From the IMG/VR virus record IMGVR_UViG_2541047752_000002: a stretch of 39,757 nt of DNA; one strand, 5' to 3'. Made by a program: the position numbers and the translations under genes. This stretch comes from a virus (Duplodnaviria > Heunggongvirae > Uroviricota > Caudoviricetes). The notes under the pieces are model-generated. The model was given only the letters and a program-made list of their open reading frames with translations. It did no database searches and had not been told where the DNA came from. Shown piece by piece: positions 3,468 through 8,149 of the stretch (the first letter of the stretch is position 1; every line of letters begins with the position of its first letter).

Positions 3468-3994
3468 TTGCGTAACTCCGATAAATCGTTAAAACGTTCC
3501 ATAAACATCCCGTAGGCATGACCCGGTGCCAGTGGAATCACGTTGAACATCTCTGTTGCCGGGATGCCTTCCAGTACAGGCCAGAAAGAGCCATCATCAA
3601 GCCCGAGATCGCGGCGTTCGGTTGCCAGCATGATGAGATCGGCATATTTCACGGGTGTACTCATAACTGGGGGTAACTCGTATTTCTCACGGATTACGGC
3701 GTCTATTTTTTCTTCCATCCGTTTATAGTCAGGAAGAAGGCGTTTCAGTGGTGCGGGAATGTCCTGGCAATACGCTTCTGTTGCATCATGCATTAACGCT
3801 TCAAAAGCAAATTCCTGCGGCACCAGCTGGCTGCAAAGAACCGCATGTTGGGCGACGCTGTAGAAGTGCGAAAGATGACCGGCAAAGCGACAGATATTTG
3901 AAAGGGAAACCGCGATATCGTTAATATCGATGTCGTCTTTATTTATCTTGTCATAATAAAAATGCTTCCCGGAAAAAGTTTTAATAAATGACAT
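3458..3994 (-). CDS. yfdR: HD-domain phosphohydrolase (YfdR-like 5'-deoxynucleotidase family)
   Basis: HD-family motifs (…FAGHLSHFYSVAQHAVL…, …HDATEAY…); start moved to internal ATG 3994 with GGAGA Shine-Dalgarno (178 aa); track ORF extends to 4021. Confidence 0.75.
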   Translation of the reverse strand: MSFIKTFSGKHFYYDKINKDDIDINDIAVSLSNICRFAGHLSHFYSVAQHAVLCSQLVPQEFAFEALMHDATEAYCQDIPAPLKRLLPDYKRMEEKIDAVIREKYELPPVMSTPVKYADLIMLATERRDLGLDDGSFWPVLEGIPATEMFNVIPLAPGHAYGMFMERFNDLSELRKCA

Positions 3995-4121
3995 TTTGTT
4001 CTCCACGTATATGCACTGCACCGCGCTGAATTCTGGTAAAAGGAAGCCCTCACCATCCGGTGATTATTGAGTTAATTACGTTTCCATAAATGCCCCCGCA
4101 GGGGCATTTGCAGTAATGAAA

Positions 4122-4946
4122 TCAGGCGGTGAAAGTACCAATAAAGGTTTCTACTTTGCTGTCTTTGAATTTCTCAACAAGCAGATCACGAAATTCGTTA
4201 GCCATTTCTTCCTGCACCGCTTCCAGCTGAATAATGCGCAGAACCAGTACAGGACGATCGCCAGTGATAATGCTGAGGCGTAATTTAAACGGACGTTCTT
4301 TCAGACCTTCAAACGGAACGCATTTAAATTCAAATGCCACTGGCATAATGTCTTTGGTCTTCGCTTCGACAGACTCCATCAGGGAGCGTTTGCCGCTGAA
4401 GTCATTATCTTCAAAATCAGCGGTCTGGTTTGCTTCAATCGTGATTTTACGGACTGCCGCAGCCGCTTTTGTTGCTTGAATGGCGTCACCATTAGCATCA
4501 AAGCCCACAAGGTAGTCGGCCCAGTCTTCGATCCATTCTGCCAGTGACTTCTGGGAGTTACGCTCGCCGTTAACAGACAACAGAGCAGAGAACGGTGCTG
4601 TCTTTTTCAGTTTGAGAGTGGCAGTGTTATCTGCGTGACCTGGCTCATCAATAGTACCCAGGTTAAGCACACTGACGGCACGCATATTATCGGCATCGAT
4701 AAAGCAGCGGGTGCCTTCATCTGCAAGATCTTTAGAATAACGGGTAAAATCATCGATGCTGGCAGTGGAAAGTGCACCACGGAAACGGAAGCGATTTAAA
4801 TTAAATTTTTCCAGATCATGAATGCGGAAATTCTCAGGCAATGCCACAGCATCGGCACCAATCTTACTGATAATTTCATTAACACCCTGAGCAGAAATAA
4901 GGGCATGGATTTGATTAATTGCGGTTGCGTCTAAGTTCTGAGACAT
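4122..4946 (-). CDS. yfdQ: DUF2303/YfdQ-family prophage protein
   Basis: 274-aa [23 protein letters not shown]…, recalled as the YfdQ family; co-oriented in the early-left operon. Confidence 0.65.
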
Positions 4947-5011: not shown

Positions 5012-5374
5012 TTAACGACCTGCTGCGCGGAGTTTTCCGTCAGGTTCACCGGCAAGAGTCAGTAATTGTCCCTGGTCTTCCTGCAGAATAGTCAGGCGAC
5101 CACCGCGATTGACATACATCGGCGTTTCGGTGGTGTCTTCTTCGGAAATTTTCCCGCGGTTAGTCGGGCGAATATATGAGAGTTTGTGTTTGATTTTCAC
5201 ACGGTTCTCATCAAATGGTTCGATTTCCAGGTTGAGTGAGACCTTACCTTTGGTTTTCGTGTTCATCACACCGGAAGCGACTTCACTGAGAACTGCGCCG
5301 ATTTTGGTTTCAAATACGCCGCCGTCCAGCTCCCCGATAAATGCCTGCACATCAGTACTGCGTTCGCTAGCCAT
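5012..5374 (-). CDS. Early-left hypothetical protein (120 aa, YfdP-like)
   Basis: Start assigned to ATG at 5374 preceded by AGGAG 7 nt upstream; the 226-aa track ORF is an upstream run-on into GC-rich non-coding DNA. Confidence 0.6.
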   Translation of the reverse strand: MASERSTDVQAFIGELDGGVFETKIGAVLSEVASGVMNTKTKGKVSLNLEIEPFDENRVKIKHKLSYIRPTNRGKISEEDTTETPMYVNRGGRLTILQEDQGQLLTLAGEPDGKLRAAGR

Positions 5375-5392
5375 TTTGCTGCTCCTCATCAT

Positions 5393-5843
5393 ATCGACCC
5401 TGCAAGGCCGATTAGTTTCTCCACAAAACAGAGAAGAACACCTGTGGTGGCCGCCGCCCGGATGGATTGGGTTATGAGCCCGTCGTCCGGTGATGCTCTT
5501 CTCTGTTTTGTAAAAAGGACGGTACCAGCCGGAAGCAAGGGTACAAGCTGGTACCGCCAGGACTACACACAGCATAAAGTTGTGGTGCCGGGTGCCTCCC
5601 GGTGCCTGGCGAAGGTTGCACACCAGGCGGGTGGGTATCCACAGAAGGTCGACTGTCAGCCTCAACCTTAACCCGCGTGCGCTGAGCCGCATTCACCACA
5701 ACGCTAAGGATTCTCTCTGGTTGAAAATACTTAGCTGTTATGTGCCTGCTTTTAGCCACATCAGGCGAGGTGGACCTGGTTATTCCCCAACAACAAGGAT
5801 TTGGTTAATCTGGATATCCCCAACAACTAGCTGAGTATTCAAC
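5393..5843 (-). other. GC-rich untranslated leader with long inverted repeats (candidate structured RNA element of the leftward early transcript)
   Basis: No ORF with a credible start or Shine-Dalgarno; 16-bp inverted repeat ACAAAACAGAGAAGAA (5423-5440) with its complement (5494-5512); 9-bp stem GGTACCAGC/GCTGGTACC (5521-5555); direct repeat TCCCCAACAAC at 5784 and 5816. Confidence 0.4.
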
Positions 5844-6365
5844 GTGATAGCTGAACTGTCTGCGGCTATGGCCGCTATAAAGGAGACTGCCGGTCTTGCT
5901 AAGGTTATTAATGACGCGAAAACGGATGCAGAAGTTAAAGCTGCAACCATTGAACTCCAGAACAAACTAATCACGCTTCAGGCAGAATGCTTCTCTCTTG
6001 GCGATGCGATCCGCCTTCGTGATGAAGAGGTGATGCATCTCAAAGCAAAAATTGCAGAGTTTGAAGATTTTTGTGCCAAGGTAGAAGGATATGTCCTTGA
6101 TCAGCTTGACTCTGGTGCTTTTGTTTACTCTAAAAATGAAATTGTGAGTGGAAAAGAAATAACTGTGCATCTGTGCCCACTTTGTTATTCCAAAAATATA
6201 AAATCGATACTTCATCCGCTTCCAGTAGGTAAAACTTCTCATTTTCTTACAAGCCGTTGCCTTCACTGTGAAAATAAATTTCTTATGGAAAAAAATCCGA
6301 TGTACGAACGACCAAGATCATTACGTGAGTTGGGGCGAGATCTGAATTCGCCTTGGATTCCTTAA
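5844..6365 (+). CDS. Hypothetical coiled-coil protein with C-terminal Cys4 zinc ribbon; opposite-strand moron in the immunity region
   Basis: 173-aa ORF (GTG 5844 or ATG 5868); CPLC…(x29)…CLHC motif; AT-rich 3' half; own intrinsic terminator at 6408-6431; antisense to the leftward early operon. Confidence 0.55.
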   Translation: MIAELSAAMAAIKETAGLAKVINDAKTDAEVKAATIELQNKLITLQAECFSLGDAIRLRDEEVMHLKAKIAEFEDFCAKVEGYVLDQLDSGAFVYSKNEIVSGKEITVHLCPLCYSKNIKSILHPLPVGKTSHFLTSRCLHCENKFLMEKNPMYERPRSLRELGRDLNSPWIP

Positions 6366-6394
6366 ATCTTGCATTGGTTGGATGATACCCAGAT

Positions 6395-6406
6395 TGTTAA
6401 AGAGCT
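6395..6406 (-). promoter_or_regulatory. rrn-type boxA-like motif (GCTCTTTAACAA) on the leftward transcript, candidate nutL
   Basis: Exact 12-nt match to the remembered rrn boxA consensus on the minus strand, just downstream of the hairpin at 6408-6425 and of the putative PL. Confidence 0.4.
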
Positions 6407-6407
6407 A

Positions 6408-6431
6408 AGCGTCCTGTAGGGCGCTTTTTTG
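6408..6431 (+). terminator. Intrinsic terminator of the zinc-ribbon moron gene
   Basis: Hairpin AGCGTCCT-GTAG-GGCGCT followed by TTTTTTGTT. Confidence 0.65.
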
Positions 6432-6510
6432 TTGCTAACGAATCATCCTGGACTTCATATGCCCCAGGCGGCTACTTCGTGGGCGTCCTGCCTGTTTGTT
6501 GTTTCTCTTG

Positions 6511-6543
6511 GGTACATTATGTATCTCATAGGTACATTGTCAA
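6511..6543 (-). promoter_or_regulatory. Putative PL promoter with overlapping OL operator half-sites
   Basis: Minus strand reads TTGACA (-35), 16-nt spacer, CATAAT (-10); GGTACAT half-sites at 6511 and 6528 match those in the cI-cro intergenic region. Confidence 0.5.
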
Positions 6544-6545
6544 GT

Positions 6546-6575
6546 ATAAAAAAACCTGCCGAAGCAGGTTCATAA
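6546..6575 (-). terminator. Intrinsic terminator downstream of cI
   Basis: Minus-strand hairpin ACCTGC-TTCG-GCAGGT followed by TTTTTTT. Confidence 0.7.
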
Positions 6576-6582
6576 ACATTGA

Positions 6583-7257
6583 TTAGGCTTTGATTTTGTA
6601 TCTTCTTGGTTTTCCTGAGAAAATCACAGTTCCAATTATAGAGCAATTACCGTTGATCTTAATGTAAGGCTCAGGCCAGTTTGGGTTTAACGCTTTGAGA
6701 TAACGCTGTGTCCCATCTTCTATCAACCTTTTGAAGGTGGTTTCACCTGTATCGTGCATCAATGCAATAACGTCGTCACCGTGGCAGGCAGGTACTTCAG
6801 GATCGACAAAAATCATGTCTCCCGGGCGGTACTCATCAATCATTGAATCACCTATCACCCGCAAGATATAAGTCATTTCCCCACAGGGTACAGGGCAGGG
6901 ATACGTTTCTGCTGTGCTCAAATCAACCTCAGAATATCCAACTTCTTTCCATGCTCCGGCCTGTACCCATGATATGACAGGGACTAATGTGATTTGTTTA
7001 TTAGTGATTGAAACATCAGGTTTTTTTGTGATGTTCGTTGTCTGGTGTTCTTGATCGAGCCATCCGACAGGCAGGTCGAAACATTTTTCGATGTGTCGTG
7101 CCATGCTGTCACCGATATTTTTAGTAGCACCATCTCCCATAAACCTGCTGGTCTGGGTTGGCTCGCGATCAATCATAGTGGCAAAGGAAGAATTCCCGCC
7201 AACACCATCTCTCAGTTTTCTGGCGTTAGACCGCCGGATGTCATGGATTGTTTTCAT
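6583..7257 (-). CDS. CI-like prophage repressor (HTH plus S24/LexA-type autopeptidase domain)
   Basis: 224-aa ORF; C-terminal S24 peptidase signature (…VIGDSMIDEYRPGDMIFVDP…); divergent from cro across an operator-rich intergenic region; no Shine-Dalgarno, so probably leaderless. Confidence 0.85.
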   Translation of the reverse strand: MKTIHDIRRSNARKLRDGVGGNSSFATMIDREPTQTSRFMGDGATKNIGDSMARHIEKCFDLPVGWLDQEHQTTNITKKPDVSITNKQITLVPVISWVQAGAWKEVGYSEVDLSTAETYPCPVPCGEMTYILRVIGDSMIDEYRPGDMIFVDPEVPACHGDDVIALMHDTGETTFKRLIEDGTQRYLKALNPNWPEPYIKINGNCSIIGTVIFSGKPRRYKIKA

Positions 7258-7347
7258 AACAAAATTAAAACCCTTGTACCGTTAAGGTACAAGTATCTTG
7301 AAGGTTCATTTCAATCATGTAATATGTATACCGGAGGTACATATTGT
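7258..7347. promoter_or_regulatory. OR region with divergent PRM/PR promoters and operators
   Basis: Palindrome TGTACC-GTTAA-GGTACA (7275-7291); further GGTACA half-sites at 7286 and 7335; PR candidate TTGAAG(7298)-16 nt-TAATAT(7320); PRM candidate TTGTAC-17 nt-TTTAAT ending 7 nt before the cI ATG. Confidence 0.6.
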
Positions 7348-7548
7348 ATGAAAGTGTATTGGGACTCTTTAACCAAAGAACAGCAGGGCGAGTTGGCCGG
7401 AAAAGTTGGCTCAACACCTGGCTACTTACGGCTGGTTTTCAATGGCTATAAAAAAGCCAGTTTTGTGCTGGCTAAAAAACTTGAGCAATGCACGTCAGGT
7501 GCAATTACGAAATCTGACTTAAGACCGGATATCTATCCGAAAGATTAG
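7348..7548 (+). CDS. Cro-like repressor
   Basis: 66-aa ORF (MKVYWDSLTKEQQGELAGKVGSTPGYLRLVFNGYKKAS…) with HTH-like segment; GGAGG Shine-Dalgarno at 7334-7338; track ORF 7045-7548 is an upstream run-on. Confidence 0.75.
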   Translation: MKVYWDSLTKEQQGELAGKVGSTPGYLRLVFNGYKKASFVLAKKLEQCTSGAITKSDLRPDIYPKD

Positions 7549-7579: not shown

Positions 7580-8149
7580 ATGAGGCTAATCGTGGGTAAG
7601 CATCACTGGAAAATAGAAAAACAGCCTGAGTGGTACGTGAAAGCTGTCAGAAAAACTATCGCGGCGTTGCCGGGTGGTTACGCTGAAGCCGCTGACTGGC
7701 TGGATGTAACAGAGAACGCTTTATTCAACCGCCTTCGTGCAGATGGCGATCAGATTTTCCCGCTGGGATGGGCAATGGTTTTACAGCGTGCTGGTGGCAC
7801 TCACTTCATTGCTGATGCTGTGGCGCAGTCTGCAAATGGCGTCTTTGTGTCTCTTCCTGACGTCGAGGATGTGGACAACGCCGATATTAACCAGCGTCTG
7901 CTGGAAGTCATTGAACAGATCGGCAGTTATTCAAAACAGATTCGTTCAGCAATCGAAGACGGTGTAGTGGAACCGCATGAGAAGACAGCAATTAACGACG
8001 AGCTGTATCTCTCAATTTCGAAGCTGCAGGAGCATGCAGCACTTGTCTACAAAATTTTTTGCATTTCAGAAAGTAATGACGCCCGCGAGTGTGCAGCTCC
8101 GGGCGTCGTGGCGTCGATTGCTTCTGGTTGTGGAGAAACTAACGCATGA
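7580..8149 (+). CDS. Early regulatory protein (CII-like/YdaT-like by position)
   Basis: 189-aa ORF directly downstream of cro; family assignment is positional only. Confidence 0.5.

Follow-up and report, generated by a model that had tools for sequence, protein, structure and literature searches.

We begin by considering the described systems closest to a 45-nt block found in a 39,757-nt stretch of phage DNA (IMG/VR virus record IMGVR_UViG_2541047752_000002, Caudoviricetes; the whole stretch is called the window), in which a boxA motif on the minus strand is joined to a hairpin just after the leftward early promoter, PL. N-independent boxA function is established for ribosomal RNA (rRNA) operons, for suhB and for clustered regularly interspaced short palindromic repeat (CRISPR) arrays, whereas in lambdoid phages boxA is treated as part of the N-dependent nut site. 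In the leader of the rRNA operons (rrn; order boxB-boxA-boxC), boxA is necessary and sufficient for the assembly of the rrn transcription antitermination complex (rrnTAC, with NusA, NusB, NusE, NusG, SuhB and S4), the role of boxB is described as unclear, and the complete complex with SuhB also lowers intrinsic termination in vitro. The third element, boxC, lies about 18-19 nt after boxA; according to published work it is the leader strand of the leader-trailer helix and is held near the exit channel by boxA-NusB until the trailer emerges. Outside the rRNA operons, boxA shields long untranslated CRISPR arrays from Rho in Salmonella and other bacteria (Stringer et al. 2020, PMC7665894), and boxA-mediated repression has been shown at suhB (Baniulyte et al. 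2017); the same work gives an experimentally derived functional consensus for gamma-proteobacteria, GYTCTTTAANA with a critical C4. How phages of the SfV, SfIV and e14 types, long noted to have no N, cII or cIII, get their early-left operon transcribed past a strong terminator is an old gap.

The window is, by comparison with related records, a mosaic prophage of the SfII/SfIV/SfV type, and its minus strand reads, from cI leftward, cI, an intrinsic terminator, PL, a leader of ~85 nt and then the string CAACAAAAAAGCGCCCTACAGGACGCTTAGCTCTTTAACAATCTGG. The promoter that we infer from its position to be PL (6516..6543, minus strand; TTGACA-16-CATAAT, 11/12 of the sigma-70 consensus) directly follows the cI terminator and is kept in SfV, SfIV, PhiR29_1 and the cryptic prophage e14 of Escherichia coli K-12. 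The boxA, GCTCTTTAACAA, occupies 6394..6405 on the minus strand and starts ~104 nt past the predicted start site of this promoter, which bears out the ~100 nt given in an initial annotation of this DNA. That annotation had called the motif an exact rrn-type boxA. Exact it is, and unique as such in the window (chance alone would give ~0.005 copies in 2 x 39,757 nt), but the coordinates then assigned, 6395-6406, were 1 nt off. As GCTCTTTAACA(A) the motif also meets the functional consensus, with C at position 4. The label "rrn-type" is compatible with this but is not diagnostic: the published boxA list of Baniulyte et al. has GCTCTTTAACA 3 nt upstream of prophage cII/C1 genes, which are P22-type nutR sites, so that this string alone cannot tell an rrn-type from a nut-type boxA. 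Element order and partner elements separate the two, not sequence. The block itself was not identified in the boxA table of the same work, one UMN026 entry aside.

The order of elements on the minus strand, hairpin and then boxA, is that of rrn and not that of nut, as had been noted from the start. The likeness to the rrn leader extends to the boxA 12-mer, which is identical, to the hairpin standing immediately 5' of it at a spacing of ~3 nt, to an untranslated transcript downstream, to the dispensability of a phage N, and to a boxA followed by the 5' strand of a potential long-range helix (in rrn, boxC). Measured from the A-U closing pairs of the hairpin, the phage boxA is 1 nt away; measured from the GC core, the spacer is UUA. 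The rrn hairpin and boxA are spaced by ACU, which has the same length. The differences are as specific: the boxC sequence is missing, the arm of the helix abuts boxA, selection on the hairpin appears to concern the opposite strand, what the helix would enclose is antisense to a protein gene and not a functional RNA, and the binding of Nus factors is, in the block, a prediction.

We turn our attention to the hairpin, which the initial annotation had described as stable on the leftward transcript. The stem-loop is real (6407-6426, G+C core 6409-6424), but on the minus strand it reaches only -7.5 kcal/mol and is moderately stable, and the A-run/T-run within 6395-6431 had gone unremarked. Read on the plus strand, where a terminator scan returns it as an intrinsic terminator (6407..6436; AAGCGTCCTGTAGGGCGCTT + TTTTTTGTTG), it has a perfect 8-bp stem with five G-C pairs and one G.U, a folding energy of -11.5 kcal/mol and then TTTTTTGTTGC. 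The G.U position becomes a C.A mismatch in the PL RNA; the T-run that follows the plus-strand stem (TTTTGTTGCT in the terminator scan) is an A-run in front of the hairpin on the minus strand, where the hairpin is followed by UUAGCUCUUU with no U-tract. The terminator stands 41 nt past the stop codon, at 6365 (plus strand), of a convergent gene that we call the cargo gene. Here and below, counts from the viral and leader-anchored scans hold among the matches listed, the contexts being phylogenetically related and the open reading frame (ORF) calls crude. With that scope, the strand opposite to the PL transcript is the more stable one in 49 of 51 distinct viral copies (mean -11.4 vs -7.0 kcal/mol), and the same holds for all 27 species-level copies from bacterial genomes. 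The A-run is 5-8 nt long in the 51 viral copies, and the loop is free both in sequence and in length (4-8 nt). Since the loop varies so freely, a boxB-like hairpin recognized by a protein is disfavoured, and the data do not support that selection on the PL transcript keeps the hairpin as a counterpart of the rrn boxB. The same hairpin sequence occurs in many contigs without boxA, so the stem is a generic terminator stem. Judged from these sequence features, the hairpin is very probably the plus-strand terminator of the cargo gene. In other viral contigs (IMG/VR loci, e.g. L128-L218), the same terminator hairpin (AAAAAGCGCCC...GGACGCT) is followed by another recurrent motif, (N)ATTTCGATTRAAAACTTAG, and by TCATTTCTATAAATGATTATTT; such contigs may carry other two-strand junction modules.

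The next question is whether boxA is conserved in its own right. The first scan for the block held boxA fixed, which makes any invariance circular; a second scan was therefore keyed on the hairpin alone and gave 90 distinct contexts. Among them boxA matches without a mismatch in 12 and with one mismatch in 4, the change being always C-to-A at position 10; none has 2-3 mismatches, and the remaining contexts match at the level of random expectation. A scan of a genome collection, constrained only for GCTCTTTAA, returned the 27 species-level copies from Enterobacterales, in which position 10 is C, A or G while A11 and A12, unconstrained by the scan, are invariant in 27/27. This is just the variation that the consensus GYTCTTTAANA allows. 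The loops and outer flanks of the block diverge while boxA stays. With the block and 16 nt of the adjoining leader as the query, 1093 of the 5426 complete E. coli genomes give a match (~20%); O157 Sakai (ECs1072 locus) and Shigella SfIV lysogens are among the carriers, and the block is present as well in Klebsiella phages and in the representatives of the 27 species, which range from Escherichia and Shigella to Edwardsiella, Sodalis, Symbiopectobacterium, Kosakonia and Cedecea. The motif is conserved in relatives, and the pattern is one of an intact or an absent boxA. The copies are related, and boxA looks to be under purifying selection compared with its flanks. This pattern suggests that boxA is probably a functional NusB/E site.

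Is the block a nut site? The lambda, P22 and phage 21 nut sites resemble it in lying just past PL, and the boxA sequence is that of the P22 type. They differ in that the order in the phage block is reversed, no boxB stands 3' of boxA, there is no N and there is no nutR counterpart. A boxB or GNRA-loop hairpin 3' of boxA is found in 0 of 58 contexts, and the 40 nt after boxA are no more structured than shuffled sequences (minimum free energy -5.9 vs -5.6 kcal/mol). No second boxA toward the rightward early promoter, PR, was found in the window or in 67 related contexts, which disposes of the matching PR-side boxA for which a search had been suggested. The only candidate there, ACTCTTTAACCA at 7364-7375 (plus strand) in the first codons of cro after PR, has 2 mismatches and departs from the consensus at positions 1 and 11; it is probably a coding coincidence. 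Nor do the early ORFs scanned contain a PHROG or Pfam match to an N-like protein (for PHROG, ten ORFs), within a scan that is not exhaustive for novel proteins; the claim that no N gene is recognizable agrees with this and with the SfIV genome paper, which reports N, cII and cIII as missing from SfII, SfV and SfIV. A CII-family protein is encoded at 7580-8149 of the window according to the PHROG and Pfam scans. With no boxB after boxA and no N-like gene, any function of boxA should be N-independent and rely on host Nus factors, and the block is not a nut site. The mEpimmI phages were considered as a parallel and set aside: they are Nus-dependent, but with an N-like Gp17 and three nut sites they form a different system.

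What then accompanies the block? Where the flanks are complete (75 viral contexts), the same-strand ORF closest to the block on its upstream side is a repressor of the helix-turn-helix/cI type; these repressors fall into at least 22 protein clusters, and their stop codon usually precedes boxA by 180-300 nt. Past the block, the first ORF of substantial size is convergent in 73 of the 75 (the other two are shadow ORFs), and a convergent ORF lies downstream in 24 of the 27 genomic contexts. These convergent ORFs belong to 8 unrelated cargo families, the upstream sides fall into 28 sequence clusters, and the alignments of relatives diverge immediately at both edges of the block. SfV and e14 have PL and the leader identical to the window base for base, and in them the block is missing; there the leader is followed directly by a translated gene of the same direction (orf33 and ymfJ, respectively). 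In a sample anchored on the shared leader, and so independent of the block, the first ORF is convergent in 34 of 35 contexts with the block vs 24 of 69 without it (Fisher p=1.4e-10, among the matches listed and in related contexts). Because SfV and e14 share PL, the leader and the STnc100-like terminator downstream (described below) without having the block, boxA is not the general antiterminator of the operon; it is an accessory that accompanies the convergent cargo. Of the proposal that the early-left operon is antiterminated in a Nus-dependent or N-independent manner, the N-independence stands, in the absence of boxB and N, and the operon-wide scope does not.

The cargo gene of the window (5844..6365, plus strand) encodes a moron-like protein of 173 aa with a coiled coil and a CxxC...CxxC motif (phrog_1244, E=2.7e-52), 45% identical (E=3e-46) to a homolog in the same position in a Klebsiella phage. 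Its region is AT-rich (GC 0.35-0.43), and the minus-strand ORF at 5967-6266 is a shadow of it. As to a defence function, PADLOC gives no match, Pfam returns only noise and phrog_1244 is without an assigned function.

Combining these observations, we arrive at a model in which the 45-nt block is a two-faced insulator at the junction of the immunity/PL region and reverse-inserted cargo, a reading to which we give an even chance. On the plus strand, the hairpin and the T-run would end transcription of the cargo gene before it enters PL and cI in the antisense direction. On the minus strand, PL transcription would pass the hairpin, which is weakened by the C.A mismatch and lacks a U-tract, and the boxA RNA, judging from its sequence identity and its pattern of conservation, would bind NusB-NusE and nucleate an N-independent Nus/SuhB elongation complex. 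The modified complex may then resist Rho across the antisense-cargo RNA, which is untranslated, AT-rich and richer in C than in G, on its way toward yfdP...xis-int. That this anti-Rho passage over the antisense cargo is the role of boxA seems to us as plausible as not. Boxes of this kind have their closest mechanistic precedent in the CRISPR arrays, where a lone boxA also acts in a transcript that is neither rRNA nor N-dependent; unlike that boxA, the phage element is fused to an opposite-strand terminator and a repeat arm, and it follows convergent genes and not untranslated length. As an insulating terminator at a module boundary, shielding element genes and coupled to antitermination, it recalls those of mobile elements such as Tn916 (PMC11658703), in another organism and with another mechanism, so that the likeness is conceptual only.

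Several observations weigh against this model and have to be set beside it. Upstream of the cargo gene, no sigma-70 consensus promoter is found on the plus strand. In vitro, SuhB binds boxB-boxA RNA only weakly when boxC and the linker are missing, and by sequence a boxC (UGUGUGGG-like, at most 1 mismatch) occurs within 60 nt after boxA in just 1 of 75 contexts. Convergent cargos without boxA exist (loci L316, L291 and L318). In the commonest context, of the SfIV type, a translated 68-aa ORF begins only 45 nt past boxA. The distance to the first co-directional ORF with a Shine-Dalgarno (SD) sequence does not separate the contexts with the block from those without it (medians of 112 and 171 nt, respectively, p=0.16; distances above 300 nt in 15/35 and 34/79), and part of the conservation of the block could reflect recombination, with the block sitting exactly at a mosaic junction. 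From the failure of the distance test it follows that the robust correlate of the block is antisense passage through a gene and not the length of the leader; the idea that boxA compensates for a long untranslated leader is, for the same reason, not supported. Many contexts without the block have a long untranslated RNA that is highly structured. The 68-aa ORF (MHKTEPKIVAPGYTNEEIYEW...) lies in SfIV (KC814930) at 3950-4156 on the minus strand, has a strong SD sequence, GAGGAGG, and overlaps the 3' end of a convergent ECs1072-family gene; it is unannotated in the SfIV record and annotated in some other genomes (L008, Kati).

A further feature of the locus is a pair of inverted repeats that brackets the cargo gene. 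The PL-proximal arm, AATCTGGGTATCATCC (6380..6395, minus strand), overlaps the last AA of boxA, and the distal arm, AATCTGGATATC (5807..5818, plus strand), lies just upstream of the cargo start; in the repeat search the two are complementary over 12 nt at 92% (6384-6395 with 5807-5818), the distal arm region extending to 5822. Direct copies of CCCCAACAAC at 5785-5794 and 5818-5827 (plus strand) flank the distal arm ahead of the GTG start codon at 5844, and this CCCCAACAAC/distal-arm region is kept in PhiR29_1, SfIV and the Klebsiella phage. The arms have the consensus AATCTGGATATCCCCAACAA; the repeat measures 26 nt at 85% in PhiR29_1 and 20 nt at 75% in SfIV, the cargo of which is unrelated. 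A partner arm stands 330-810 nt downstream in 55 of 64 viral contexts (same-strand control, 5 of 64) and in ~24 of the 27 genomic copies. The arms vary together, and the arm type follows the cargo family. One use of such repeats, as an invertible switch, is rejected: the cargo is convergent in essentially all of ~100 contexts, with no alternating orientation.

These repeats invite an extension of the insulator model in which the block would mimic the rrn leader as an RNA chaperone: boxA would anchor the 5' arm near the exit channel, the distal arm would pair with it 330-810 nt later, and the antisense cargo would be looped out or excised by RNase III. We regard this extension as tentative and somewhat doubtful. 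In its favour, the repeats bracket the cargo and the proximal arm begins inside boxA, and the phage order of hairpin, boxA, proximal arm, looped-out RNA and distal arm is the geometry of rrn, in which boxC plays the part of the arm. Treated as a helix in the PL RNA, the arms have 92% of their cells paired, where slid controls give 16-50%; both partners have changed in 11 of the 16 pairs, and none of 500 shuffles scores as high. Complementarity guided the choice of positions 1-12 of the constructs in this test but not of positions 13-16, which are mostly paired, often as U.G. Transition mismatches between the arms are compatible with wobble pairing in 30 cases for the PL RNA vs 6 for the cargo mRNA (p=7e-5). 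On the other hand, repeats that act in the DNA, as recombination joints, terminal repeats or paired protein sites, also predict concerted changes in the arms; the mismatches include 39 transversions; and the PL-side arm decays faster (42 single-arm changes vs 11 in the distal arm), so that C-to-T changes could imitate the wobble bias. The helix of the window is also only 12 bp, and its arm abuts boxA where rrn has a spacer of 18-19 nt. In its widest form, the idea is that lambdoid prophages copied the logic of the rrn leader to carry reversed genes, with an N-free boxA/Nus/SuhB complex, pairing of the arms 0.3-0.8 kb later, the antisense moron looped out and possibly excised by RNase III, and the same DNA terminating the moron mRNA; this, too, is a possibility that we put forward with some reserve.

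Alternatively, the likeness to boxA may be functionless, and the block kept as a terminator of the cargo and a recombination joint at a mosaic boundary. The generic hairpin, found in many contexts without boxA, fits this reading, as do the position of the block exactly where relatives diverge and the free exchange of both sides around it (28 upstream clusters and 8 cargo families). A terminator, however, needs no conserved upstream flank, and the flank here is a 12/12 match to boxA for which ~0.005 copies are expected. There are no decayed copies, and variation within the motif is confined to position 10, where it is permitted, in contrast to the diverging loops and outer flanks. We therefore hold a functionless boxA to be improbable.

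The precedent of the suhB 5' untranslated region offers a reading with the opposite sign, in which boxA-bound Nus factors would occlude the ribosome binding site of the first PL gene, promote Rho termination and damp early-left expression. As at suhB, the phage boxA stands outside rRNA and phage-N contexts, and the 68-aa ORF of the SfIV type, with its SD sequence and start codon 45 nt past boxA, falls inside the 50-nt limit of Baniulyte et al. In the window and in at least four other cargo families there is no ORF start near boxA, while the block is identical across contexts, and the regulation to be expected is positive, by read-through, and not repression; negative control of this kind has little to recommend it. 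Still less do we credit a bidirectional terminator that attenuates PL transcription, which would draw on the A-run before the hairpin and the U-rich UUAGCUCUUU after it on the PL strand: the minus strand fails the criteria for a terminator, the C.A mismatch is conserved and the U-tract is broken right after the stem. A classical nutL of the lambda/P22 type with an unrecognized N-like protein would suit the position ~100 nt past PL and the boxA sequence shared with P22-type nut sites, but is hardly credible with boxB in 0 of 58 contexts, a downstream region no more structured than shuffled sequence, an upstream hairpin with a loop that is not conserved, no boxA at PR, no N-like ORF, and SfV and e14 sharing PL without the block.

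If boxA only accompanies cargo, what could serve the operon in general? The PL transcript opens with a structured, conserved leader RNA that takes up its first ~75-85 nt (6422..6511, core 6432-6499, minus strand) and is present in a single copy in the window; the covariance model built for it, R1, scores 93 bits there and detects no second copy after PR. Three elements make up its fold: a closing helix, a hairpin that is small and invariant, and a second hairpin whose stem covaries and whose loop, GGCAUAYGAA, is conserved; RNAalifold gives the same helices. The closing helix occurs as AACGAA/TTCGTT, AGCGAA/TTCGCT, GTCATC/GATGAC and CCACC/GGTGG; 10 of 11 pairs show changes on both sides, 93% of the cells are paired vs 22-42% in slid controls, and 0 of 500 shuffles reach the score. 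The leader is found in SfII, SfIV, SfV, e14, ST64B, mEp237, mEp460 and phiNP and in phages of Yersinia, Pectobacterium, Pantoea, Klebsiella and Aeromonas, with or without boxA, and is never annotated. In e14 the same PL and leader RNA (5098-5188, minus strand, 79.5 bits) lie upstream of ymfJ without the boxA block. The leader is not in Rfam: a permissive search of the window returned only an STnc100-like element (described below) and nothing at the leader or the block, and none of the families attains its gathering threshold at any place in this DNA.

The nearest described counterpart is the put RNA of HK022, likewise an N-less lambdoid; put is an antiterminator that acts in cis without N, its read-through of terminators depending on the zinc-binding domain of RNA polymerase beta', and the leader of the window starts within ~10 nt of the PL start as putL does. 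Unlike put, the leader has no second copy after PR, and the structured RNA here is the leader at 6422-6511 and not the boxA block. Homology of the leader to put could not be demonstrated, since R1 misses the HK022 early region with putL and putR even with the filters off, only the string CAGGATGA being common; no HK022-type phage is among the 51 BLAST hits of the leader. Because it lies near the PL start like putL and is present regardless of boxA, the leader RNA is, as a hypothesis, a better candidate than boxA for a general cis-acting element of N-less early-left operons. On the plus strand, a terminator-like site at 6479-6495 (GTGGGCGTCCTGCCTGT + TTGTTGTTTC) is the antisense of the invariant 5' part of the leader and may serve plus-strand transcription as a back-up stop or be a mere by-product of the leader structure.

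Upstream of PL, the immunity region is common to the window, SfV, SfIV, PhiR29_1 and e14 (ymfK, ymfT, ymfL, ymfM). The cI-type repressor gene (6583..7257, minus strand) encodes 224 aa with a Peptidase_S24 domain (Pfam PF00717, E=1.5e-26); its counterpart is annotated as cI in SfV, SfIV and PhiR29_1, and its length and position match ymfK of e14. The intrinsic terminator that closes the cI transcript (6552..6571, minus strand; GAACCTGCTTCGGCAGGTTT then TTTTATAC) is annotated as a terminator in SfV. ATGTACC half-sites overlap PL (6516-6540), and between cI and cro stands a perfect palindrome, CTTGTACC-TTAAC-GGTACAAG (7273-7293), which the terminator scan flagged only because it is palindromic; the palindrome and the half-sites are likely repressor operators. 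In the right operon, isrK and a C4 antisense RNA of the P1/P7 immI type score above the Rfam gathering thresholds in SfV (6062-6250, plus strand) and in an E. coli prophage (locus L007, 216-417, minus strand); the Rfam search gives no match to either in the window.

From boxA, the PL transcript has 1,016 nt to cover before it reaches the start codon of yfdP, with no convincing ORF led by an SD sequence, and it crosses two C-rich, G-poor stretches, with a C/G ratio of up to 2.75 at 6171-6016 and 1.3-1.6 at 6431-6276; the proposed need for resistance to Rho draws on these features and on the AT-rich cargo. The yfdP-like gene (5012..5377, minus strand; phrog_204, E=2.5e-49; YfdP in the annotation of relatives) is the first convincingly translated gene of the early-left operon. 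Immediately upstream of it lies an STnc100-like structured RNA (5509..5732, minus strand), a multi-stem RNA that matches Rfam RF02076 over its full length with 42.4 bits (E=2.9e-7), where the gathering score is 47. It has a fold z-score of -3.1 and ends in a 13-bp terminator stem (5558-5518) and a U-run (5516-5512); SfV, SfIV and the Klebsiella phage carry the element too. Since SfV has it without boxA, read-through of its terminator in SfV cannot need boxA. A 2026 preprint ties STnc100 to the prophage small RNA PasD.

We found no description of the block, the bracketing repeats or the leader RNA in the record annotations or in the literature searched, the coverage of which was incomplete, and boxA/Nus-factor control in a phage that lacks N, with a terminator for the other strand built into the same element, is apparently undescribed. 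The block would be a compact, N-free use by a phage of the rrn-type system of its host, active on both strands, and it may explain how accessory genes can lie backwards behind PL, ahead of the early genes, with both transcription units left intact. As it flanks a hot spot that exchanges at least eight unrelated accessory genes, it bears on the acquisition and insulation of morons by prophages. For the control of the early-left operon there are now three RNA candidates, boxA, the bracketing helix and the covarying leader RNA. If true, the rrn-like block together with the covarying PL leader would amount to an RNA-only, host-factor-only early control in N-less lambdoid phages of the SfV, SfIV, e14 and ST64B types.

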